A stretch of DNA of 60,185 nucleotides, counting the filler, from Nemertoderma westbladi (lineage: Eukaryota > Animalia > Xenacoelomorpha), in the NCBI GenBank assembly GCA_032718475.1. It is 3 parts of 3 records of this genome, joined end to end, with 100 filler letters (N's around TTAATTAATTAA, not from the genome) between each part and the next. Parts side by side here need not be neighbours in the genome. Positions count along the whole stretch, not along the records: positions 1 to 25,076 come from JAUCBJ010004892.1; 2 more parts are not named here. The stretch is one strand, 5' to 3'. The notes beneath the pieces were generated by a model. It worked only from the letters and a program-made list of their open reading frames with translations. It was not told the DNA's origin and ran no database searches. Each line of letters opens with the position of its first letter. Position 1 is the stretch's first letter. Of this stretch, positions 2,947 through 59,150 are shown piece after piece. A program made the translations under genes and the position numbers.

Positions 2947-3054
2947 CTAAGGTAGAAGAAATATACGTTTATCTGTTATTAGTTCATGCATGTTATATAG
3001 GGCTAGCCATAAGCTAGGCAATACAAATGGCAGCAGCTCGAGGTAAGGGGAGAT
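2947..3054 (-). CDS. mbnl: muscleblind-like candidate terminal coding exon
   Basis: Acceptor ttgcctag|ATC follows a ~127-nt AG-free, YGCY-rich tract. Phase-0 reading is ISPYLELLPF...LLP*; phase-1 reading is YLPLPRAAAICIA* (stop at 3014). No protein homology recognised. Confidence 0.45.
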   Translation of the reverse strand: MSPYLELLPFVLPSLWLALYNMHELITDKRIFLLP

Positions 3055-4249
3055 CTAGGCAATAATACATATACAGCACGTAGTTACAGCAGGGTGCGGG
3101 CATAATATAGCAATGTACAGCAGCACAAGAAAGGTGGTGCATTCAGCGCAATTTATGGAATATTTGGTTAAATGGAAGTTTTTCTTAAACGCACTGCACT
3201 TGTTTCGATAACATGTGGTATTGTATGCATCCCAAGTACCAGTTGGTACATACATATACATACAGATGTAGGCCTATTATAAAATGTATATCACATAGAG
3301 ATCCAGTACAGGCACTGTACTGGTATACTGTACTACCAAAGTAAAGTATAACTAAATTTACAAAATATAAGCTACAGTATATGTTATGGCACGTTGAAAC
3401 GTGTATACCTATTTATACGCGAAAATTAAGGCGGAGGTATACCGACTATACCGGCTAGAATATTACAAATTCCGTCGTAAACCTTTTTCTTTAATATAAT
3501 ACGAGTTATCACTACCAGTATGGAATATAGTATAGTTCTGCTGTACGCCATCATCTGTGATCGCGAAACGAAGTTACATAACTTGTGCCGACAAAAGATT
3601 CAACAGCCAAAAAATATATAAGGTGGGAAGACTTTACTTACGGAGCCAGTAATATACATCTCATGTACAGGCTAAAATATACACTACGGTACGTTTATAC
3701 TTAAATGGGAACTAATATAAGATAAATTTAAATTTGTTCCTATTCGTATCTAATTCATATAGTTTCAGTTTATTTACTTACCTTTTTACATGATTTCCGA
3801 TTTCAAATTGTAAATATTAAATAATTTCAAAATATCCGATGGGTTTCTTTATCGGGTCAATAAAATCTAAACTAAATTGTATACGTATGGATTCAATCGT
3901 TATATAAATATAATACAACCACAAAGAAACTGAAATACAATAAGTTAACTAAATAACCCAAAATATTGACGAGAAGCCCATCTTGGGTTGAACAGTCGAC
4001 CTATTCAACTCGGAAGCCATTGTAATTGAATTGGTTGTTCGCAGCGCAAAGAGAGGCGCCGGCTGTGGTATTCGGAACGGTGGGAGGAGTGTAGCCCCCT
4101 TGCGGTGGGTGGTAGTATTTACATTGTAATCTGGAGCAACGGCCTCGAGTGAAGTCCTTACAAGGTATCACGTGACCGTCAAGTATTTCTGTTGTATCTG
4201 AAAAAAAATAATAAATACCTGTTATACTCTGTTATCTCTATCTGCTATT

Positions 4250-8386: not shown

Positions 8387-9465
8387 CTAAATAGGGAAAC
8401 AACATTAAATATAGATAGTTTAATTAATAATATCCACCTATTTAATACATTTATTATACACATTTCCCGAAGAGGATAAAAACTTTAGTACTAAAAACTA
8501 AGCAGTAGTTAAAAGTTGTCAAGAAAAGTGAGTTTAGCTAATAAGTTTTGCACCCCCAGAGACTATACGCCAAGAGGCTATGCCTAAACAATCTATTGAT
8601 AATATCAAACTCTTGATACACAACTACAGTAATATCTCATAGAAGACTTCACTCACTAATGTGCTCGTCTAACAAGATTGATTATCACGTTCTGTTTTTC
8701 AATCGACATGCAATGTAATAGCGAAATGTCGCGAAAATGTATGAAAGTCTAAGTCACAAAGAAATATAATATATATTTACGCTTTCATTATTTAGCTACA
8801 ACCGTTTAAAAAAGGTGTCTCCGAAAATAACACCAGTTACAGCGCAGCTATTCAACCTTATAGTGATTTGTTGTGTAAACTGATAAAAATGAAATTTAAA
8901 TGCGTGGTAATATCTATTGTTTTCCTAGCTATATTACATTATTATACAGGCATTGCATTGTTGCCCAGCTACTTATGAGATAATAATAAAAAAAATGATA
9001 AACAAAATGTTCTAGAACATTGCCTATTTATTAAATATAATATATGGCCTGCAGGGGAAGCCAATAATGAAACTTTCGAATGCCCATATCTCAGCTATTT
9101 ACCAACCAAATTCAAATATTTTTACATATTTGGAATCCTTGCAAGGTCAGCTTTCTAACAGTACCAACCAATATTATCACGAATAATAAACATAAAATTA
9201 TTTGATTTCATAATTTAGGTTGAAATTTTGAAATCCAGTTTCCGGAATGCAAATTATGTTCTGAATGCTTCACATTATGTTTAAGATGTGAAATATTTAC
9301 TGAAAACTACTGATTATTTACTATAACTTATATTTTCTACTCATTAAGTATAAGTAGGCCTCTATAAGAGCAAACATTAAAATATTTAAAAAAATTTAAT
9401 ATGTAAATTTACGTGTATAAATTTATTTTATATTCTAAATTGACAACTGAAATGACTCTGTGTAA

Positions 9466-9973
9466 GGCCCCCCTCACACGGAGCAACTTGTTTCTGCAAC
9501 TTGTTTCTGAAACTTGTTGCTGGACCCCCTCACACACAGAAACTTGTTGCTGCAACTTGTTTCAGCAACTTGTTTCCGAAACTTGTTTCTGCAACTTGTT
9601 GCTGGACCGGACCCCCTCACACACAGAAACTTGTTGCTGAAGAAAATAACAATTATTTGCAAATAAATAGCTAACAAGTCCAGTCATTTATATATAATAT
9701 CACATCACTCAAATTATCTAATATTAGCTAGTATCAAAAAATGGAATGTAATAAAAGTTTTTCAAAAAGTTGCTGGGAATATAACTTCCAGCAACTTGTT
9801 GCTGGACTCCCTCACACACAGAAACAAGTTGCGGAAACAAGTTGCAGAAACTTGTTGCTGGAGTCCTCACACACAGAAACAAGTTTCGGAAACAAGTTGC
9901 AGCAACAAGTTTCTGTGTGTGAGGGGGTCCAGCAACAAGTTTCAGAAACAAGTTGCTCCGTGTGAGGGGGGCC
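9466..9973. mobile_element. PIF/Harbinger-type MITE (508 bp)
   Basis: Long inverted arms start GGCCCCCCTCACACGGAGCAACTTG and end CAAGTTGCTCCGTGTGAGGGGGGCC. TAA target duplication at 9463-9465 and 9974-9976. Confidence 0.9.
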
Positions 9974-10226
9974 TAACAAACCACATATCAGAGGGTTTTG
10001 GCGTCAATAACTACTGAATTTAAATGTGACCACTGTATTTAATAATTATAAATACATAGATTGCATAATGGAATTCTTGACTATTCGTTCGGAAAATTTT
10101 ACTGCATGAAGCCACGTAATATCAAACTTCTACTGTATAAGGCAATATGTTTATAAATACAGTAGAACAGGTGTTGTAGTTACCGGTAGGATTACAATAT
10201 CGTTAAATAATAATATTAATAAGTAC

Positions 10227-10301
10227 CAGGTAATCATTATGCTCACGAAGACGCTTTTGTCCGATTAGTTGATGGTTCGCCATAGCAACAGCCGTGCCAC
10301 T
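10227..10301 (-). CDS. mbnl: muscleblind-like 75-nt cassette exon (MBNL1 exon 5-like NLS exon)
   Basis: ggctaataaag|AGT...TAC CTG|gtactt, phase 0-0. Encodes SGTAVAMANHQLIGQKRLREHNDYL and lies between the ZnF4 exon and the KRPAL exon. Confidence 0.7.
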
Positions 10302-10998
10302 CTTTATTAGCCAATAGCAGATCAGCGTGCCAAGAGAGCAATCATTGTAGAACAGAGAGATAAGCAGGCAACAATGTAAGTGAAAGTAGCCAATCAAATG
10401 CGGGCACATCACATGTAAATGTGAGAGGGGGAAATAACACATTTGGTAAGTAATTAAGATTTTAACGTTATTAATTAATTAACAGGTAAGATAATTAGAC
10501 ATCTTGACAATGAAGGAATAATTACCACATATTTTTAACATTCAAATTTAATGGATAAAAAATGATAAAAAGTTTCAGAAGAAGTTTTAGTTGAAGAGAA
10601 TATTATTATTATTGATAAGTGATTGAACTATATAAGGATCAGAACGGATACAATTCGTCAATACCGCAGTCAGATACAAAATAATGCTACAGCTAAAGCA
10701 TTCCAAACAAAATATTAATTGAAATTAAAATTAACTATTTAAATGCTTCCATATATGGTTTGCGTCAAGATTGCTAAAAATACTATGATAAGAAATTTCA
10801 AAAAATATAAACTTCCATAATTAAAACAATTTAACAATTAACTTGTATTAAAGGGCCCACATGCTTTAAAATATTGCATCTACATGTTATGTATCAAGCG
10901 AACTACGCGGTCATGCTCTAAAGAAAACATTTGCAACATGCGAACTAGCTAACTTTCAGTAACTAGCGTCGTATAACTGAATATCGAATAAATCTTAC

Positions 10999-11116: not shown

Positions 11117-13282
11117 CTAAAAATAAAGTGAAACAATTTAAATAATATCCGGTGATTTTTGAAAAATGTTTTTTTTTTAATTTCTGCGCCGGTTTTAACA
11201 CTGTGATATTAAAGAATATTGTTGAGTTATTGATGACAAACTTCTTTGAAAAAAACAATGCAAAATATGATATCAACCGGAATAATATTTATACCTATTA
11301 CACGATTAATTTAACTAGAAAGCCAGCAAGCTGGCTGGAAGGAGCCCGGGGGAAGAATCCTAGCCAAGACAGATTTTACAAATGAACTATGTCAGTCAGC
11401 TGTAGGCCTAGTAAGTAGGCCTAAACTAAACAATTGTCTAAACTGTAAGGCGTGAGGCTAGCTGACTTTGTCGATCGTCCCACATAATAAAAAATTAAAC
11501 TTTGCTACCACTAACAAAAATATAATATGAAGCAAATAATTTCATTATCAAGCACGTTTACAAGATATAAGATTACCGAATATTTATGAAAAAATGCCCA
11601 TGATGCACAACCGGGACACCGGGCGAGTGATGACCCTGAACCCACCCTACAACCACCCTATATTATAAATGCGACTCCATTTCCATACGAATATTACAAC
11701 ACCGGCTGCTAAGGGAATCAACCAATGCTGCATTATAGAACAAAACTAACAATAGAAAGGGGTAGCTATAGTTACTAAAACTAAAACACAAACAAAGCGC
11801 AAATATCCTAGCTGTTCCACATTAGTGTCAGTAGTTCTAGTAAGATAATAATAGTGATAACAGTTTGCCGCACCCAGACCCAGTCCAGCAGAATAACCTA
11901 TGGAGATAGATATTATGACAACACACCCGGTTTCTTTTAAATTTGTGTGATTTGAGTTTTATGTTCGCTTCGCACCACTATTGAGTTTTATAATATTTGT
12001 AAGAAATGTTAAACTTATCTTATGCCAATGTAGTAATGGTATTAAAATATAATTAAATTAATTTGCACTATTAATGCTTCAGCTAAAAAATGATGCTAAT
12101 CCTATGTAATAAAAAAATAAGAATATTATTTGTAAGAACTTTCTACATATATCCTATACAAAATAATCAGCCCAATGATTCGTGGAATAATAATATAATC
12201 CTACTGCAGTTGTATATTTTATTTTGTTTATTGACAACTCAACTATTTTCTGTCTATCCCTGAGAGCTGATAAAGGATGTGTAGACTCAGCCAGCAGCCA
12301 GCAGCAGGAGGGGTGTAGTCAAGAAATTCTGCATTGATGGAATTCTATCTCAAGCAGCCCGGCACTCAACCATAATTCACAGCTAGCTGCTGCAGCAGCT
12401 CAGGGAGGAGTTGTTCTTTACCATTGCTATTAATTTCGCGACAAAATAATTTCAAAAAAACGAAATATATCGAATACCACACATTGAATTGATCTGATAT
12501 TTTGTAACGCGATTACTTAAAAAAAAGCAATTAAAAGCAATTTACTTGTAAAATTTCAACAAAATCGCCAGGCAGGAAGTGCCTGAACCTAGATAATTAT
12601 CAGTCAGGCAGTCAGTCAGTGTTATATATCCTAAGATTTTACAGTAAGTATCCCGCCTGTCGAGCGGGCTCCTAACTATACATATTTATTATTTGTACTT
12701 CTAATTTTTACCAACGGGCAATTTGTAAAAATATCAATTCAGATAGATTGGCGTTCTTTAGTTCCCGCGGCTCGTTATAATTATAATATTTTGGTAATAT
12801 AGGCAAAGCAGTTGAAACAACTTATTATTCGGAGTCCATTCAAAATTTTGGAAGTAAAATGAGAGGACTGTAAATGAAAAAACAAAGTTGCTTTGTTCGA
12901 AAACTCAGCCAATGTATATCTATGTATCAATGGTATCAATGTATACCAATGTACTCTACTGTATATCAGTTTTCATTACAGAGAGACAATAAATGTTGAC
13001 CAGCCAGAACTTGCTATGGATATTGTGGAATTGCACTCTAATACAAATGTCGCCGTGTCTTAAACAAGAATAGACATTAATTATTTATTAGGAGATTAAT
13101 TCTCCATACCAACATCAACTACATTTTAATATTTGGTTCGGGAATAAAAGGATCTAATACAAACAAACAGTTTGATTACATTGTCACCTTCAAAATATAG
13201 TATTTATCAAAACGTACTGCATCTATGATGATAGATAGATATATAATTGAAATTATGTTCCACAAAGGAAATTCGAAAGACC

Positions 13283-13372
13283 TGCGGGATATAAAGAACC
13301 GCTTGATATAAAGACCCGCGGGATATAAAGAACCGCGGGATATAAAGACCCGGGGATATAAATTGACCGGGA
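13283..13372. repeat. short ~18-19-bp tandem repeat (CGGGATATAAAGAACCG-like)
   Basis: About five degenerate copies just downstream of the ZnF3 exon donor. Confidence 0.7.
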
Positions 13373-13416
13373 TCCATCGACCCTATAAACACCATATAGA
13401 TTCGGCCATGCCTCAC

Positions 13417-25076: not shown

Positions 25077-25176
25077 NNNNNNNNNNNNNNNNNNNNNNNN
25101 NNNNNNNNNNNNNNNNNNNNTTAATTAATTAANNNNNNNNNNNNNNNNNNNNNNNNNNNNNNNNNNNNNNNNNNNN
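25077..25176. other. assembly gap/contig spacer
   Basis: 44 N + TTAATTAATTAA (stops in all six frames) + 44 N. Confidence 0.98.
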
Positions 25177-27460: not shown

Positions 27461-27800
27461 CGCCAGAAGTAAGGCAAGACGGGGAAGTCTCGTGGTAAGG
27501 GTGAACGGGAATGATGAGGTAAACGCGAGTGCGACGTATACGTATAATATGGTATCACACATATATATAATGCAACGCAACAATAGTATAGCAGCAGACC
27601 CTAACTACAGTAGGTAACGCAGTGCGGCTACGGTAGGATGTAGGTTGCACAGTGCAGCTACGGTACCAGCAGCTGTGTAGTCCGCAGGTACCGGTAGTGT
27701 GCTGACGTGCACACCCTGCACCGTGTATGGACACACTGTATGTCAGGCCGACCGTCAGGCCATGTGAGACAGACAGACGGTAGGTCCTAACCGGCTGGCG
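27461..27800 (-). repeat. 3' LTR
   Basis: Direct repeat of 33366-33705 with no differences seen by eye. Termini are CGCCAG...CTGGCG. Confidence 0.95.
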
Positions 27801-28432
27801 TAACTTATCTTTTTATCCAGTTTGTGTGTCGAGGGCGAGGCAGGGACCACTACTAACTAGGATGACATCCATTCACCCCAGTCATATAAAGTCAACACAA
27901 ACATCGGGTAAAGTAAGCTGTAAGGCGTACATACGTAATCTAACTAACTATAAGCACACTAAATAGGAGTATACAACTATAATAACGATGGGGCAATGAT
28001 AATCATGTGTGCAAAAAAAACAGTTAGCGCACTTAGGTGTCGAACTCGGTATCGTTGGGTTAGGTACACATGTGTTATCCCCTAAGCTAATCGGGGAGTT
28101 GGGTAACGGTCGGTGTGCGGGTGGTATGATAGGGTATACTGGTTGTCCCTGCATATTAGATTGAAATGATCACAAACAAGACAATGAAAGAGTACAAAAT
28201 AGTATGTAATACACTTAAGTTTATCAAACTAAAAGTCACTAAAAGGGGCTTGTTTCTCCATTAGCGGCTGGAGTCACCACGGGGGATTATAATCTCAGTA
28301 TGTATATATTGCAACTTACTAACTCGCGGTAGAAGTAGGGGGGGGGGGGGGGGGGGGGGGTAATCGCGGTTAGTCACTGGAGTCGGATGGGGCGAGCCAT
28401 GCGCACAAGACACACGCATCAGGCGCGAGTTT

Positions 28433-31400
28433 CTATGGGAAACCGTAATATTCGGGTGGTTTGCGCACCCTGTAAGGGCGCTGTCGCTGGGTGGAGGGTG
28501 GGTCCAGGACAACTGGGGCGGGTTGTGGGACCGGTAGTGGCTCCACCGGTGGGCCGAACGCATCCACGTGGGCGGGTGGAGCGCTGGTGGGTTCCTCTGC
28601 CAGGGACCTGGCTGGGAAGGACTCGTTGAGGGACTCGGTATCGGAGTCGGACTCGTGGTCGAAGACTGTAGTGGGTTGTGCGATTCGTGGTACGAGGAAG
28701 CAGTCGGCCTGTGGGACCCTGTAGGCGTGTGCCCGGAGTTGGGTGCCCGTAAACTTGCGAATGGAGCACCATGTGCCGTCTGTAGCGCTAACGATATACC
28801 GGGGGCGGGCGCCTAAGCGGGGGGTGTCAACGTAGAGGTGTACAAGGTCGCCCACCTTGAGGGCGGTGAACCCGGGTAGGACGGTGGGGCGGTGGACCTT
28901 GGAGCGCGCGCTGGCCGCGTGGTTTGCAAGGCGACGGTCGTGTTGGGCGGAGATGATCGCGGTGTCGTTCAATGGGAGTTGGTCACCAGTAAATTGATCA
29001 CGCTGGAAGAGGATCTCACGTGCGGACAGCCCGGGAGCACGGAGTCGGGCGTTAAGGTGGGCCACTGCAATGGCGAGGGATGTGGATGAAAAGGGTCCGC
29101 CGGATGGGCGGAGCTTAAGTAGCTCGGCTTGCAGTTCACCGATGGCGTGTTCGGCGACGGGGTTTTTGTTAATATTCTTCCGGGCGCCGACTTCGAGGAG
29201 AAGGTGGTGGGACTTGAGGGTGGGGTCGCCAACGAGGGCCTGAAAGCCTGGAGCGGGGTCGGTCCGGATAACGGCGAGGGGGCCGCTAAGGGGACACATA
29301 CCAAAGGCCAGGGTTATTAGGGCGTCGCGCAGAGTGTCCTGTTGTTCGTCGGGAATGATGACGGCATTAGTGTAGGATGATACAGTTTCACGGATAAGGA
29401 GGATCCGCTGTGAATGGCGGCGGAAGACATCGGCGGCAAACGACTGGCCGACGACAGGGGGTGGATCGAGGGAGGACTGGGGTACTACGCGAGGGGGGGC
29501 CGTTGCCAGGGCGACGCATTGGTGGCACTGGGCAGACACTTCGTTAAGAGCGCGGTCGAGATCTAGTGCGTGGAAGTATCGGGAGAAGGTATTACGGAGT
29601 TGGGCCCGGGATGGGTGTAGCAACTCGAGGTGGAGGGAGGTAAGAAGTCCCGCAAGGGCGGACCGGGGTACGACAATAACGTCGTAGGGGGAAGTGAATG
29701 GACTCTGGCGGCGGACGACTATGAGACCGGAGGAGGCAAGGGAGCAGATGCCCAGGTACCGTTTAACGTCGCGTTTGTCGGTAATACGCTTGGAAGGTCG
29801 TGTGCCGGACGCAAGATGTTCTGCAACGCGGAGGAGGTCGGGGCACTCACGTTGGGTAGCCAGCCACGCGGGTCGGCTGGCGTAGAGGGGGCGCGGGTCG
29901 TTCAACTCGGTGGACGCGAAGCACCTCGGGGACGGGGAGGGGGGCGGATTACCGGGTGGCTGTGTCGCGAGACGTACTACGGGGGACTCAGCGACGGTTG
30001 CGACAAAGGAACAAACCTGACACGCCGGGAGAGAGCACGGCTCGACGTTGCGACTCTGAAAGTCGGCCGGTAGGTTAGTGGTTCCCTTGATGTGGGAGAT
30101 AGTTACTTGGGCCTGGCTAGCGATAGATAGAAAGGTTGACAGGCGGGGACTGTTGGAGTAAGCGCCGCGGGACAGCTTTTTGTACGCCTCAACGCAGGGT
30201 TTACTGTCGGAGAGGACATGCGACTGCTTGGAGGAGCTAATGAAATACGGGAGGAAGTGTTGTACTGCGGCGGCAATGGCGAGCGCTTCTAATTCGCACG
30301 GGAGCCATGTTCTCTGGTGGGCCTTTAGTTTGGCAGAGTAAAAGCCGGAGAGGAGGAGTTCCTTACCGCGTTTAGAATATAACACTGCACCTAGGCCGTC
30401 GACGGATGACGCAGCGTCTGTAACGAGGAAGAGTTCGTCGCTGGGACGCGGGATGGTGACGGACCGGCACGATTGAATGGCGGCTTGGGAGCGGTGGAAG
30501 ACTGCGTTAAGCTCGGGCGACCAAGCGACGGAATCGCCGGGTTTGGGTGTAAGGAGGGACTCGAGTGGGGCCACGAGTGCGGAGCAGCGCGGGAGGACGC
30601 GGGCGAGAATCTTGTAAGATCCTAGGTATGAACGGAGATCCCGAACTGTGGCTGGGATGGGGCACCGGGACAATGCGGACGTGATGTGGGTAGAGGCGGA
30701 TAACGAACCGTTGGACCACGACCAACCGAGGATGGTGGTGGTCTGAGGGCAGATAAATGTTTTCTTGGCGGATAGGCGTAAGTCGGCGCGATGGAGGGCG
30801 CGGAGGAGCTGTGAGAAGTTCGCGAGGAGTTCGGGGATGGTGTCGCCGCCGCAATATATGTCGTCGGCGAGTTTGACTACAGATCCCTGGACGAGAAGGT
30901 CGCCAAGGACTCGGGACATGAGTTCCTCGAGTGCGGTTTCGCTGCCGGGCATACCCATGGCGCAGCGCCTGTACACGCGCACGCCGCGGAAGGGAGTGGA
31001 TACTCCGCAGAAGCGCATCGACTCGCGTTGGAGAGGAATCTGGTAGAAGGCGCTGGTGAGATCCGCTTTGACGAGGTATTTAAACCGTCCGAGGGAACGG
31101 ATGGTTGACTCGACGTCGGGGAGGAACGCGGGTTGGGGTTTACAATAACGTGCGATCTCGGTAAATGCGGTAACCAACCGGGAGCCGCCGTTGGGTTTGG
31201 CGACGAGGAAGCTCGGGTTGAGGTATTCGACGGTGATGCCGGCGAGCTCGGGGCGGATGAAAACGCCGAGGCGTTCGAGTGAATCGAACTGTTCTTGGAG
31301 TTCTACGAGGCGATCGCGGGCGTATTGCGGGATGCGGCCTTTGTGCTGTGGAGGTAACGTGGGAGAAACGTTGACGACGGCCTCGAACGGACCGGCAGAG

Positions 31401-33283
31401 CCATTGTAGCCGGGATACTGGGGATCGAACACGGCCGCGTATTGTTCCAGTACATCGTGGAAGGAGGCGCGTTCCCGGTGGGTGAGGATGTTGTTGGGGT
31501 CTAGGTGGACTGCGCTGATGTGGGATTTGGATATGGCGGCGGGTGCAGGGGTTGCGACTACGGTTCGGATTACGGGAGACGGGAGTGACTGGGAAGTGGA
31601 GTTGATAGGTGCAAGGGTGGTAGGGAGGACGGAACAGACATGCGAGTTGCGTTGGATGAACACAGGACTGGGGGATAGGTTCGGGATAGTGATAGTACCT
31701 GCGAGGGGTTGGAGATGCATTGGCGGGAACCAAGACTGAGCGGTGAAGCGGGCGGGGTTTTTGGCTACGTGTGGGGATACGAGGAGGTCAGAGGACTCGT
31801 GTAGATGGGCTGGGAGGGAGAGGTCGAGGGATTCACCTGGTAGGACGATGGATGACTGAACCGGGGCTCGGAGTACAGATGTGTGACGGATCGCGGGACC
31901 GGGCCGCTTCGGGGGGGGGGGGTACCGGACAGATCTGCCATCGTGGAATGATATCAATGACTGGCCGGGACGGATAGTGACGTCATTGGTTGTGAGGAAT
32001 GGCATGCCCGCGAGAAGCGGAACGTTGAGGCTCGCGACGACGAGGCCGCGGAAGGGGAGGCTGAGGTCGTCGTACGTGAGGTTGAACGAGGTTTCGCCGA
32101 TGACACCGAGCATCGGGGAACCGTCGGCTTTCACGGGTACTTGTCGGGAGCCCCGGGTGATGGGGACGCCTAGGCGGATGGCGGTGTCGTGTGCGATCAG
32201 GTCGGACTCGGCACCGCAGTCAAGGAGGACGTTGACAGGTTTGTGCTCGTAGTGGGCGACAAACGTCGGGCTAGGTCGTACGGCCACTACATTAACTGAG
32301 GGATCGGAGGTCGGTGTTGGGGCTGGATCGGGGTCGTCCTCGGGTTGGTCGCCGAACTCTTCGTCTCCGTCGACATGGACGAGGCGTGCTCGAGATATGA
32401 AACGCTTGTCGGCGGGAGGGAGGAAGGGGCAACTGCTGAGGAAGTGGTCGGTACTTGAACGTTTCGTCTGTGTGCACAGGGGGCACCGGCGCGTAGATCG
32501 GTTGGGACCGCGGGTTGCGGGTGGTGGCGGTGGTCGCCGGGTCTGAGCACGGAAAGTGCGGACTTCGGCCGTGGTATGGAGTTCGTCCAACAGCGAGGAA
32601 AGAGCTTGAGAAATCTCGGGCTTTATGCTTGCCAGGGTTCGGGAACGAAGTTCGGTCCCGTACCGTTGCTGGACGAGTCGTGGGAGATCCGGATGAATCA
32701 GACGAAGCCAAACTAAGACGATAAGGTTCTCAAGGGTGGGGGAAAGCTCTTCGTCCTCGGGAGGGATGATGCCGTGGTGGGAAATTCCACCATCCTGGCG
32801 GAGGAGGCTATCGTCTACGAATGCTGAGAGACGTTGGAATAAGTCCTCGGCGCGTTCCTCGTGTTGCAAGGTGATCTCGCTGAACGCGAGGAAATGGGCG
32901 CCCGTGGCCTGGAATCCGTAGTGGAGGCGGATAGCTTGCCAGATGGAAGGCAAGGAGGTAGAGTCGCGGACTATGGTGTTGCGGGCGATGATAGGAGCGT
33001 AGTTTGCTACCTGGCCCAGCATCAAGTCTAGGGTGGCGGCCTTCTGTACTGCGGTGCGTCGGGCGGCCTCGGCGATGGTGTGTGGGTCGTCGGTGAATCC
33101 GCGGAGTGGAGCGGCGCGGGAGTGACGCAGCCATGTGGCACCGGGTGCGGTAAACTGGCTGAACTGGGGTTGAAGTGTGAGAGAGTACGTGAGGTTGTGC
33201 CGCCACACCTCGAACGAATTAATTGTCTCGGATTTATCGAGCGGTAAGAGTTTGGGAGGCTTTAACACTCCGGTAAACGCCAT
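28433..33283 (-). CDS. Gag-Pol polyprotein, 1616 aa
   Basis: CCHC-type knuckle (CPLC...H...C), protease LLDCGA, RT (ADLTSAFYQIP, KLADD), RNase H (VTDA, ELEALA, LSDS, ADFQSR) and integrase (H..H..C..C, ADVF, RTDPAPGF, VAEHAI), in Gypsy order PR-RT-RH-IN. Confidence 0.95.
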   Translation of the reverse strand: MAFTGVLKPPKLLPLDKSETINSFEVWRHNLTYSLTLQPQFSQFTAPGATWLRHSRAAPLRGFTDDPHTIAEAARRTAVQKAATLDLMLGQVANYAPIIARNTIVRDSTSLPSIWQAIRLHYGFQATGAHFLAFSEITLQHEERAEDLFQRLSAFVDDSLLRQDGGISHHGIIPPEDEELSPTLENLIVLVWLRLIHPDLPRLVQQRYGTELRSRTLASIKPEISQALSSLLDELHTTAEVRTFRAQTRRPPPPPATRGPNRSTRRCPLCTQTKRSSTDHFLSSCPFLPPADKRFISRARLVHVDGDEEFGDQPEDDPDPAPTPTSDPSVNVVAVRPSPTFVAHYEHKPVNVLLDCGAESDLIAHDTAIRLGVPITRGSRQVPVKADGSPMLGVIGETSFNLTYDDLSLPFRGLVVASLNVPLLAGMPFLTTNDVTIRPGQSLISFHDGRSVRYPPPPKRPGPAIRHTSVLRAPVQSSIVLPGESLDLSLPAHLHESSDLLVSPHVAKNPARFTAQSWFPPMHLQPLAGTITIPNLSPSPVFIQRNSHVCSVLPTTLAPINSTSQSLPSPVIRTVVATPAPAAISKSHISAVHLDPNNILTHRERASFHDVLEQYAAVFDPQYPGYNGSAGPFEAVVNVSPTLPPQHKGRIPQYARDRLVELQEQFDSLERLGVFIRPELAGITVEYLNPSFLVAKPNGGSRLVTAFTEIARYCKPQPAFLPDVESTIRSLGRFKYLVKADLTSAFYQIPLQRESMRFCGVSTPFRGVRVYRRCAMGMPGSETALEELMSRVLGDLLVQGSVVKLADDIYCGGDTIPELLANFSQLLRALHRADLRLSAKKTFICPQTTTILGWSWSNGSLSASTHITSALSRCPIPATVRDLRSYLGSYKILARVLPRCSALVAPLESLLTPKPGDSVAWSPELNAVFHRSQAAIQSCRSVTIPRPSDELFLVTDAASSVDGLGAVLYSKRGKELLLSGFYSAKLKAHQRTWLPCELEALAIAAAVQHFLPYFISSSKQSHVLSDSKPCVEAYKKLSRGAYSNSPRLSTFLSIASQAQVTISHIKGTTNLPADFQSRNVEPCSLPACQVCSFVATVAESPVVRLATQPPGNPPPSPSPRCFASTELNDPRPLYASRPAWLATQRECPDLLRVAEHLASGTRPSKRITDKRDVKRYLGICSLASSGLIVVRRQSPFTSPYDVIVVPRSALAGLLTSLHLELLHPSRAQLRNTFSRYFHALDLDRALNEVSAQCHQCVALATAPPRVVPQSSLDPPPVVGQSFAADVFRRHSQRILLIRETVSSYTNAVIIPDEQQDTLRDALITLAFGMCPLSGPLAVIRTDPAPGFQALVGDPTLKSHHLLLEVGARKNINKNPVAEHAIGELQAELLKLRPSGGPFSSTSLAIAVAHLNARLRAPGLSAREILFQRDQFTGDQLPLNDTAIISAQHDRRLANHAASARSKVHRPTVLPGFTALKVGDLVHLYVDTPRLGARPRYIVSATDGTWCSIRKFTGTQLRAHAYRVPQADCFLVPRIAQPTTVFDHESDSDTESLNESFPARSLAEEPTSAPPAHVDAFGPPVEPLPVPQPAPVVLDPPSTQRQRPYRVRKPPEYYGFP

Positions 33284-33354
33284 GCTGTGTGCGAGTGGTC
33301 AGGTAAGAGATCTGCTGCTATGGTGAGGAGAACGAGGCGGGGGACGGAAAACAA

Positions 33355-33365
33355 CGCTGCCACCA
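33355..33365 (-). promoter_or_regulatory. primer-binding site
   Basis: TGGTGGCAGCG lies directly after the 5' LTR; TGG is complementary to tRNA CCA. Confidence 0.7.
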
Positions 33366-33705
33366 CGCCAGAAGTAAGGCAAGACGGGGAAGTCTCGTGG
33401 TAAGGGTGAACGGGAATGATGAGGTAAACGCGAGTGCGACGTATACGTATAATATGGTATCACACATATATATAATGCAACGCAACAATAGTATAGCAGC
33501 AGACCCTAACTACAGTAGGTAACGCAGTGCGGCTACGGTAGGATGTAGGTTGCACAGTGCAGCTACGGTACCAGCAGCTGTGTAGTCCGCAGGTACCGGT
33601 AGTGTGCTGACGTGCACACCCTGCACCGTGTATGGACACACTGTATGTCAGGCCGACCGTCAGGCCATGTGAGACAGACAGACGGTAGGTCCTAACCGGC
33701 TGGCG
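33366..33705 (-). repeat. 5' LTR
   Basis: Direct repeat of 27461-27800. Confidence 0.95.
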
Positions 33706-33950
33706 TTAATCAAATGCCTTGAAGAAATCTACAAAAATGACAGTCATTGATCGTTGAACATAATGATTTAATGATTTCAACAGACATACTATTTATTTTT
33801 CAAAAATGTATCTGCATCCATTTATGTTTCCAATTGCCTCAGCAGTGCTTTTTCAATATTGAACTAATATATATACATCCTTGCAAGCGTAAATATTGTA
33901 CTTATTTTAAAATTAACATTTCAGATAATTGTATATTTATTGTCTTCTAG

Positions 33951-34531
33951 GATATACGACACCGGATTGGATGGTCTTAACTACCAACACCGAGTATTTT
34001 ATATTTCTCTTTCTCATGATCGGCCTTTACGGTAAGGTGTTTCGTGTGGCCCACGCGCAACAGAAAAAAATCTCGCGGGAGACTGTAGCCGTTCATTTCA
34101 ACAACGCAGCCCCTGCTGCACCGATGATGCAACAGAACAAAAGAAAGAAATCTCTGTTCCGCTCTAGAAACAGTGAGGCCGCACCTCACGTTGGTGATGT
34201 TAACATGAACAAAGAAATCAAACTCTTAAAGGGTTACTTAATGATAGTAGGAACCTTCATCATCACCTTTCTACCTGGTACGATCAGCGATATTCTGGAA
34301 GTGTCACAAACCGTACAGATTACCGAGACGTTCATGCAGATCAACATACTGCTGTGGAACCTGAATTCTCTTCTAAATCCGGCCGTCTACGCTTACTCCC
34401 AAAAAACATTCAAGAGAGCCTTCGAGAAAATCCTCAAGGATATCTTCTGCAAGTGTCGTGCGGAGAGCGAGGCACAGGCCGCCCATCGAAATGAAAGGAT
34501 GTATAGTAGAACATTAGACACCAACGTTTGA
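33951..34531 (+). CDS. class A (rhodopsin-like) GPCR, terminal exon encoding TM5-TM7
   Basis: cttctag|GA acceptor; TM5 LYGKVFRVAHAQ, TM6 IVGTFIITFLP, TM7 NSLLNPAVY, helix 8 FKRAF. Upstream exons were not found. Confidence 0.88.
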
Positions 34532-41147: not shown

Positions 41148-41325
41148 TTAAATTGCAAACATATGTGTAACAAATTCCGAGTATCTTATACCCCCATCAT
41201 CATTAACTTCAGCAACTCTTAGGAACTCGTCCATTTCTTCATCTGTAAACCCCTCGCACATATTGCTAAGTAAATTACGCATGACCTTAGCTTCAACATA
41301 GCCCGTGTCCATTTTATCGAAAACT
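41148..41325 (-). CDS. calmodulin-like/myosin light chain-like EF-hand pair, terminal exon
   Basis: Encodes (AFR)VFDKMDTGYVEAKVMRNLLSNMCEGFTDEEMDEFLRVAEVNDDGGIRYSEFVTHMFAI*, collinear with the calmodulin C-lobe. Exon starts at 41325 or 41355 depending on the acceptor. Confidence 0.85.
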
Positions 41326-42059
41326 CTAAAAGCAAATGATTTATACTTAATCGAACTGTATTATAGTGAATAATGTCGCAACGAATATAAATAAATGCAC
41401 AAAGCGAATAATCTCATGAAACAATACAAAGTAAAACACAGAATTACCTACATTTTACGACCTCTTAGTTAGCAAACACGCTGTAAAGGGGGGGGGGGGG
41501 GGGGGGGGTGGGGGTAGGAGGGTAGAGGGGGATGGGAGACAATATTTACAGATGGCCCATAAGTATTATAATCATGTAAATTGATAATGTACATTATAGT
41601 GTTGTTATTTGTGGTCAATCATAAATAAACAGAAGCAAACGCACGTGATTGACGGATTAAAAGTGAGGGCATGTTGAATGTCAAATTTGAAGGGGTCTGA
41701 ACTTGAATTTCATTTAGTAGTAGCCCTTTCGCACATTGTTTCAGAAAGTTTCACCTTTTTTGCATTACGTCGAAATTATTTGACTTAATTGAGCCCGTAT
41801 GAGAATATACTGTATTACAGTTAATAGAGTCACGCCATGGAATTTCGATATCTAGAAGAACACTGCTGGTTACTCAAACATGTCCAGAGTTCATATTATG
41901 TTATAATGACGAATGCACAAAACATAGAGGAAGGTTGTAATCACAAAAGCAAACAGTCGGCCGAAGCCGGCGGCGAGCCAAACTCTACTCTTTCGATAGC
42001 TGCTACCCGAAGGTACTGAGGGGTGGGCGCTACTCCTATCCAAATTTGGCCTTTTTGCC

Positions 42060-45496: not shown

Positions 45497-45596
45497 NNNN
45501 NNNNNNNNNNNNNNNNNNNNNNNNNNNNNNNNNNNNNNNNTTAATTAATTAANNNNNNNNNNNNNNNNNNNNNNNNNNNNNNNNNNNNNNNNNNNN
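45497..45596. other. assembly gap/contig spacer
   Basis: 44 N + TTAATTAATTAA + 44 N. Confidence 0.98.
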
Positions 45597-58372: not shown

Positions 58373-58595
58373 ATCAATGATAAAATTTGCCAGTGGGGCA
58401 AATCCACGCAAAATCCACATAAAATGATATCAAATTTATCATTTTGACCGTTGAAAAAGTGCTTGAGTGTATTGAAAATGACTACTTTTATTCACGACTT
58501 GAATGACAGTCAAGAAATATCTGCTTTTTATTTTATTGTTTACACCTCCACCTACTACATGACTTCCCGCTATATAGTTTTCTTACTCCCAACAG

Positions 58596-58891
58596 GTCTG
58601 TTTTACGTGACACTTCTAACCTATTGGACTATATTTGTTGGGGAACACCAGATGGAAGAAGTGAGCCGTAACCGGACAATGCGAACCTACTGGCGACAGA
58701 TCGTCCCCGTCGCCGTTGGCTGCCTCGCTCTCTTCGCCTTCGATATGTGCGAACGGGGCGTCCAGCTCAACAACCCCTTCTACAGTATTTGGGGTTCCCG
58801 CACCGGTGCTAACTTTGCGTTATGCTTTATTATCGTAGCGGCTATCTGCGCAGCCCTTTATTTCGTCTACCTGGCCTACATGATATTCAAG
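58596..58891 (+). CDS. wls: wntless coding exon 5
   Basis: caacag|GT...AAG|gttggt; encodes YWTIFVGEH...FDMCERGVQLNNPFYSIW. Confidence 0.96.
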
Positions 58892-59150
58892 GTTGGTACT
58901 GCCTTACCTCAAATTTACCATTTAAGTTGAAATGAATGCTATAATTTGTTAAGATTATTAAGAATATTCTTGTCAGTTCACCACCATAGGTGATCTTGTG
59001 GCATGGAAGCCCAGGTTTACTTTAACACCACTGGACCAAAAGGCTGCATAAGTTGGATTAAGCTAATAAAACGTTATTATATTTTACTAATTAACTAATT
59101 TGCGAACTAAATAAAACTAACTATCAAATTATAATAAATGATTGTTTCAG

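Follow-up and report, generated by a model that had tools for sequence, protein, structure and literature searches.

Results

A likely homologue of MBNL1 exon 5 in Nemertoderma westbladi

Segment 10301-10227 on the minus strand of the window, the whole 60,185-nt stretch of Nemertoderma westbladi DNA (filler included) that we analysed, is likely a real alternative exon of a muscleblind gene, and its position, phase and sequence argue for homology with exon 5 of vertebrate MBNL1 and MBNL2. The best explanation of its splice signals, to which we give a probability of about two in three, is an MBNL-repressed alternative exon with distant branching, acting in a feedback on protein localisation. Within the window, ten muscleblind exons run from ZnF2 (16021) to ZnF6 (stop near 4004), and the exon at issue, hereafter the KR exon, lies among them.

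16021-15839, minus strand: ZnF2 exon
15197-15090, minus strand: linker exon 1, 108 nt, in-frame, donor TGG/gtacgt
14629-14459, minus strand: linker exon 2
13550-13417, minus strand: ZnF3 exon
11116-10999, minus strand: upstream exon, ZnF4 (PF22628, E 2e-12)
10301-10227, minus strand: candidate KR cassette exon, 75 nt, phase 0-0, first KR of a likely bipartite nuclear localisation signal (NLS)
8386-8173, minus strand: downstream exon with the second KR (KRPAL), from the exon model
7418-7318, minus strand: 101-nt exon, phase 1-0, second candidate for regulation
5004-4890, minus strand: ZnF5 exon, third finger pair
from 4197 to about 4004, minus strand: last coding exon, ZnF6, third finger pair

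The ten-exon model forms a single open frame of 471 aa with the KR exon and 446 aa without it. The protein carries MBNL-type tandem CCCH finger pairs, its top matches are MBNL proteins (overall identity to the best of them 40% or lower), and PF22628 scores above the Pfam cut-off on four exons. The gene has six fingers with the third finger pair complete, which together with that modest identity favours an invertebrate gene, and three finger pairs are also present in the retrieved echinoderm, hemichordate, tunicate, mollusc and coral proteins. A ZnF1 exon was sought across the window and not found, so the 5' end of the gene may lie on another piece; stretches of filler N occupy 25077-25176 and 45497-45596. 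A homologue search using the last exon gave no match. Quick trees from a sample without amphioxus and xenacoelomorphs left the gene unplaced, outside the vertebrate, tunicate, ambulacrarian and cnidarian groups, and AU tests with the same taxa missing rejected no grouping (vertebrates 0.60, Ambulacraria 0.65, protostomes 0.46). ZnF3 and ZnF4 are split by an intron (11117-13416, minus strand) inside the second finger pair, which is a single exon in the compared genomic loci, and the linker exon at 15197-15090 could be a further cassette.

Elsewhere in the window we observed an LTR retrotransposon at 27480-33700 (direct repeats recognised by eye flank a 1,621-aa frame that matches protease, RT and RNase H), a rhodopsin-type GPCR exon at 33929-34531 (plus strand; Pfam), a Wntless-like exon at 58448-58930 (plus strand; Pfam) and a putative EF-hand-like last exon, read by eye, at about 41150-41330 (minus strand).

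The KR exon and its donor

The KR exon reads SGTAVAMANHQLIGQKRLREHNDYL and sits in frame between the ZnF4 exon and the exon with the second KR, the arrangement that defines an MBNL exon-5-type cassette; its omission leaves the reading frame intact. A preliminary description of this DNA had predicted a 75-nt phase 0-0 exon between the ZnF4 and KRPAL exons with acceptor gctaataaag/A and donor CTG/gtact (the slash marks the splice junction), and the coordinates, phase, frame and both sites are confirmed at the level of sequence. Its proposal of homology to MBNL1 exon 5 is likewise supported by equal position and phase, by a KR with eight residues after it, the last a Leu, that the window shares with pig MBNL1 (P0001), and by the spacing of the two KR pairs, the exon putting its KR 18 residues ahead of the second KR as against KR-19-KR in pig. 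Inclusion of the exon is predicted to complete a two-part nuclear signal. Pfam returned no match on the exon's 25 residues.

The KR-exon donor alone lacks a +5 G among the gene's nine donors; by plain match count (6/9) it ties for weakest. Donors of the form TG/GTAY without +5 G occur at 40 of 3,536 GTs on the minus strand of the window. A cryptic donor within the exon (after 10247, TTC/gtgagc) matches 4/9 positions, would shift the frame and is disfavoured. The following intron contains a small element with repeated inverted ends (about 9460-9990), and no Rbfox-type GCATG is present within 250 nt downstream of the exon.

An AG-free zone with displaced signals precedes the acceptor

The features of the two exon ends, with positions counted from the acceptor, are as follows.

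10304-10502, minus strand: AG-free zone before the acceptor, 199 nt
10316-10406, minus strand: six YGCY motifs, MBNL sites predicted from sequence
10423-10434, minus strand: displaced pyrimidine run TTTCCCCCTCTC, -133 to -122
10435-10457, minus strand: candidate A residues for distant branching, predicted at -153 (10454), -146 (10447) and -134 (10435)
10321-10325, minus strand: CTGAT, a competing branch candidate at normal distance, with its A at -21 (10322) and a YGCY overlapping it
10306-10310, minus strand: branch-point-like CTAAT against the AG, A at -6
10219-10229, minus strand: donor CTG/gtacttat, without +4 A and +5 G

The preliminary description had noted an AG-free stretch of about 200 nt, six YGCY motifs near the acceptor and a pyrimidine tract displaced by about 125 nt, and all three were recovered on recounting: the zone spans 10502-10304, the preceding sense-strand AG starting at 10504; the motifs lie at -105, -69, -65, -39, -26 and -18 (10406, 10370, 10366, 10340, 10327 and 10319); and the tract, starting at -133, is the sole run of 9 or more pyrimidines in the last 220 nt. 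Together these make up the acceptor architecture of an MBNL exon-5-type cassette. Among the gaps between the 2,977 AGs of the window's minus strand the zone ranks second in length, and when the 697-nt intron was shuffled with its dinucleotides kept, 1 shuffle in 5,000 matched it. The YGCY count is high relative to whole-intron shuffles (p=0.002) and within chance of local shuffles (p=0.60 for the last 110 nt, p=0.076 for the last 200 nt), so the number of motifs goes with a local composition rich in UG, GC and CU. A zone of at least 100 nt combined with at least four YGCY is found at 3 of 6,295 AGs on both strands of the window, the KR-exon acceptor among them, and at eight of the gene's nine other acceptors the zone measures 7-76 nt with 0-1 YGCY, the remaining one being that of exon 7418-7318.

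No pyrimidine tract lies next to the acceptor AG, and with no +5 G at the donor neither end of the exon is well defined. By analogy with the mapped human site, we infer that the A at -134, just before the pyrimidine run, is a candidate for the branch point. The CTAAT against the AG, a case of an acceptor-proximal CTRAY, is a feature that the preliminary description missed; it is common to the window, the coral, arthropod and rotifer-type loci considered below and the human primer. Folded as RNA, the zone was no more structured than its shuffles (z 0.42 and 0.00) and gave no support to a stable hairpin, in agreement with the largely unstructured RNA described in the available text of PMC5082313.

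Homologous exons share both splice-site ends across phyla

A scan of a metagenome collection with the ZnF4 exon yielded 170 confirmed relatives, mostly animal contigs, of which we took the best 80. Homologous exons, located by translation and not by their flanking signals, were found in 13 of these loci, forming seven groups beside the window that were labelled through similarity to named proteins.

L006: fish MBNL2-type
L009/L013/L062: first stony-coral type
L011: second stony-coral type
L065/L066/L068/L071/L076: insect-type, five loci
L060: arthropod-like
L078: bdelloid-rotifer-type
L017: group without a named-protein label

Among these best 80 of 170, no KR exon was found in a large annelid-like group, in the fish MBNL3-type locus L003 or in L042/L046/L047; many of the 67 loci without it are too short or are transcripts. 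Counting the window, a TG/GTAY donor without +5 G is present in all eight groups, with CTG in seven. The coral donors (CTG/gtactt) equal the window donor letter for letter, the fish donor is CTG/gtattt, and the human MBNL1 exon 5 donor is CTG/gtact according to the preliminary description.

The acceptors of the same eight groups from the best 80 of 170 were compared with 50 control acceptors, which are non-independent in that many come from related annelid-like loci and three (L004, L007 and L049) are transcript contigs rather than acceptors. AG-free zones of 72-346 nt precede the exon in 8/8 groups; the control median is 26 nt, and 3/50 controls reach at least 70 nt. Four to ten YGCY within 110 nt characterise 6/8 groups, with at least four in 4/50 controls; L078 and L017 have just two each. 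A CTRAY with its A at -4 to -8 occurs in 6/8 groups (L006 and L017 are without it), in 0/50 controls and at 72 of 2,974 AGs in the window (2.4%). L017 is AG-poor throughout, its own control zone measuring 330 nt. Exon length varies from 45 to 111 nt across the groups. The arthropod-like L060 (3291-3315) and insect-type L068 (4436-4460) share GCTTTGCATG, with a Rbfox-type GCATG, just past the KR-exon donor.

Coral contigs L010 and L011 match at 99.65% over 2,000 nt, after which L010 jumps exactly across the downstream intron with the upstream intron present; this precise absence indicates that the coral KR-exon donor is used. The retention of the upstream intron in L010 fits the KR-exon acceptor as the slow step.

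The preliminary description had held the switch to be conserved down to splice-site sequence. This stands for the donor and for the final ~10-25 nt before the exon, with a reach extending to corals, but fails for the zone body, which is at chance for most pairs between phyla: its alignment score was reached by 76/500 shuffles against fish and by 196/500 and 82/500 against the corals. Against L068 the figure was 10/500, with an alignment that is gappy and non-collinear. The alignment of intron ends that it had proposed as a check came out the same way, the last 30 nt of the window and fish introns being modestly above chance (29/1,000 shuffles) and the zone body not. What is conserved is the layout and the two ends rather than the zone sequence.

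KR peptides in isoform models

At the protein level, models with and without a KR peptide are available for Pocillopora, Stylophora, Exaiptasia, Antedon, Ciona and Styela, and across two Diadema species, these isoform pairs being database gene models. In the three cnidarians the peptide has 15 aa, with KR and then eight residues ending in Leu; it measures 22 aa in Antedon and Diadema, 11 aa in Ciona and 13 aa in Styela. In place of a second KR, cnidarians have KK or RK and ambulacrarians have KK, which makes an NLS function less sure in these animals. The six-finger sponge protein P0146 (Sycon) has KR and then RR at the matching place.

A second candidate regulated exon

Exon 7418-7318 (minus strand) is preceded by a 170-nt AG-free zone (7590-7421) with 7 YGCY in 250 nt. 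In the exon model, skipping it would shift the frame, which would then end 44 nt before the last junction, and the third finger pair would be lost; the predicted outcome is a protein of four fingers instead of six that ends in a short alternative tail. C-termini without the third finger pair also occur in Ciona, Styela, Phallusia and coral models. Downstream of the stop, at about 3010-3185 (minus strand), lies the densest YGCY cluster of the minus strand (10 in 110 nt), within a 129-nt AG-free stretch, possibly reflecting a 3' UTR or further terminal-exon control.

Discussion

A model for the KR exon, weighed against its rivals

In the reading that we prefer, MBNL repression with distant branching, the analogy with the human case suggests that branching would take place just upstream of the pyrimidine run, at about -134 to -153, that the AG-free zone would make the exon's own AG the first one met downstream of the branch, and that MBNL bound to the YGCY cluster, between the run and the AG, would block use of that AG. 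As in the human and worm work, high nuclear MBNL would then lead to skipping, loss of the first KR and a more cytoplasmic isoform, and low nuclear MBNL to inclusion and nuclear return, which amounts to negative feedback. An A at -6 leaves too little room before the AG for normal branching; the CTRAY at -4 to -8 is likely a decoy, or a binding site for SF1/U2 or a QKI-type protein, that would keep the acceptor weak.

The alternative that survives best keeps MBNL repression and places branching at the CTGAT (-21), so that MBNL would cover the branch point and the zone would be a by-product of a pyrimidine/UG-rich silencer. The A of this CTGAT does sit between the YGCY motifs at -26 and -18, arthropod-type zones are just 72-85 nt long, L060 is without a pyrimidine run of 9, and in humans introns with long zones often branch at several points, as the available text of PMC2991248 describes. 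We nonetheless consider proximal branching unlikely, since no pyrimidine tract follows it (45% pyrimidine in -14 to -4), the 199-nt zone far exceeds what it would need, and the run at -133 agrees in place and letters with that of the fish MBNL2-type locus at -129 (TTTTCCCTTTCTC).

Distant branching under MBNL must also be set against an exon that is constitutive, or regulated in this lineage by QKI-type, CELF, Rbfox or PTB proteins. The failure of the YGCY count to exceed the local 110-nt shuffles, the persistence of donor and zone in L078 and L017 with two YGCY, and the co-regulation of the worm exon by FOX-1 all lean this way, yet six YGCY here against 0-1 at the gene's eight non-candidate acceptors point back to MBNL. 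For a constitutive exon, the retention of weak sites across phyla would be hard to explain, and skipped models exist in every named lineage whose isoform set was examined; we judge this family of explanations quite improbable.

Separate origins, with KR cassettes arising repeatedly since any MBNL gene gains from feedback, would account for lengths of 45-111 nt, for a likeness confined to the KR and the ends and for zones that do not align. Identical intron position and phase, a Leu-CTG/GTAY donor in 7/8 groups (among the best 80 of 170), and a KR placed exactly eight residues ahead of the donor in corals, window, fish and pig make repeated origin very hard to credit. That the segment is intron sequence resembling an exon by chance, as a prediction from sequence alone with 25 residues lacking a Pfam match might be, is scarcely believable given that zone, YGCY cluster, open frame, KR position and coral-identical donor occur jointly.

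Age and significance of the switch

To our knowledge, it is rare for an alternative exon to retain its place, its phase and its regulatory signals from one phylum to another. Coral, insect-type and rotifer-type genes share the unusual splice signals of the window exon and of the human exon behind nuclear targeting of this protein, which suggests that the switch is likely older than the divergence of corals from other animals, and the module likely descends from a cnidarian-bilaterian ancestor. We advance more tentatively, as a proposal somewhat short of an even chance, that a single inherited cnidarian-bilaterian module carries a four-part code from corals to humans, in which AG-free zone, YGCY cluster, donor without +5 G and decoy CTRAY set inclusion, that of human MBNL1 exon 5 included.

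The earlier claim that the switch predates vertebrates was right, but it is already in print for C. elegans, as the available text of PMC10773944 shows. What appears to be new, judging from the sequences compared, is the extension to cnidarians and echinoderms, together with a common splice-signal code to which the acceptor-proximal CTRAY belongs: our literature searches found no cnidarian or cross-phylum account of the KR exon and none of the acceptor motif, although earlier published alignments may bear on this. If the coral and window exons act like the human exon, the loop would rank with the oldest splicing feedbacks that can be traced, its age exceeding what the available text of PMC10773944 states, and the Ambulacraria exception made there would be removed; the KK of ambulacrarians likely explains that exception. 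Our analysis also points out two elements, the CTRAY by the AG and the donor without +5 G, in an exon much used as a myotonic dystrophy marker.

Comparison with known MBNL exons

Coding exon 5 of vertebrate MBNL1 and MBNL2 has 54 nt in the consulted parts of several accounts (PMC2991248, PMC4176163, PMC5082313, PMC13044900, PMC9084524). The facts about the human acceptor that the preliminary description gave hold where checked: ahead of the MBNL1 exon lies an AG-free zone of 173 nt, branching occurs at -141 and -144, and the reverse complement of a cloning primer ends in GCTAATTAAG, implying the same intron end with the CTRAY A at -6 (available text of PMC2991248). Excerpts of the functional studies report that MBNL1, bound in the zone at a place downstream of the distant branch point, prevents the 3' site from being located (PMC4176163), that YGCY changes alter the dose response (PMC5082313), and that the human exon is repressed by MBNL1 and also by the fly, worm, Ciona and Trichoplax proteins (PMC5041496). 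The window exon resembles vertebrate exon 5 in its place after ZnF4, phase 0-0, KR with eight residues to Leu, long AG-free zone, displaced pyrimidine run, YGCY cluster, acceptor GCTAA-W-AAG and second KR in KRPAL. It differs in its length of 75 nt rather than 54, in a peptide likeness that ends at the KR and last Leu, and in a host gene whose six fingers include a second pair interrupted by an intron; compared with the fish locus it has six YGCY rather than nine and a zone body that cannot be aligned.

The 95-nt exon of MBNL1 and MBNL2 is frame-shifting, with a 224-nt zone and a branch at -229 (PMC2991248, PMC13044900, both in part), and in MBNL2 it is MBNL-controlled (available text of PMC13044900). 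Window exon 7418-7318 shares with it the place in the gene, a length of 3n+2, a long zone and a YGCY cluster, whereas its skipping would delete the third finger pair and its homology is suggested by position and phase only.

Among invertebrates, the closest parallel is exon 7 of C. elegans mbl-1, an autoregulated KR exon that controls localisation (Verbeeren 2023, PMC10773944, available text) and that, like the window exon, adjoins a second KR exon. The same text reports that every bilaterian phylum outside Ambulacraria carries the double KR on adjacent exons, and limits it to Bilateria, whereas the cassette is found here in cnidarians and echinoderms too, with KK or RK as the second motif. 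The word 'branch' does not occur in the portion of that text available to us; in our comparison, the donor, the zone and the acceptor-proximal CTRAY are common to several phyla.
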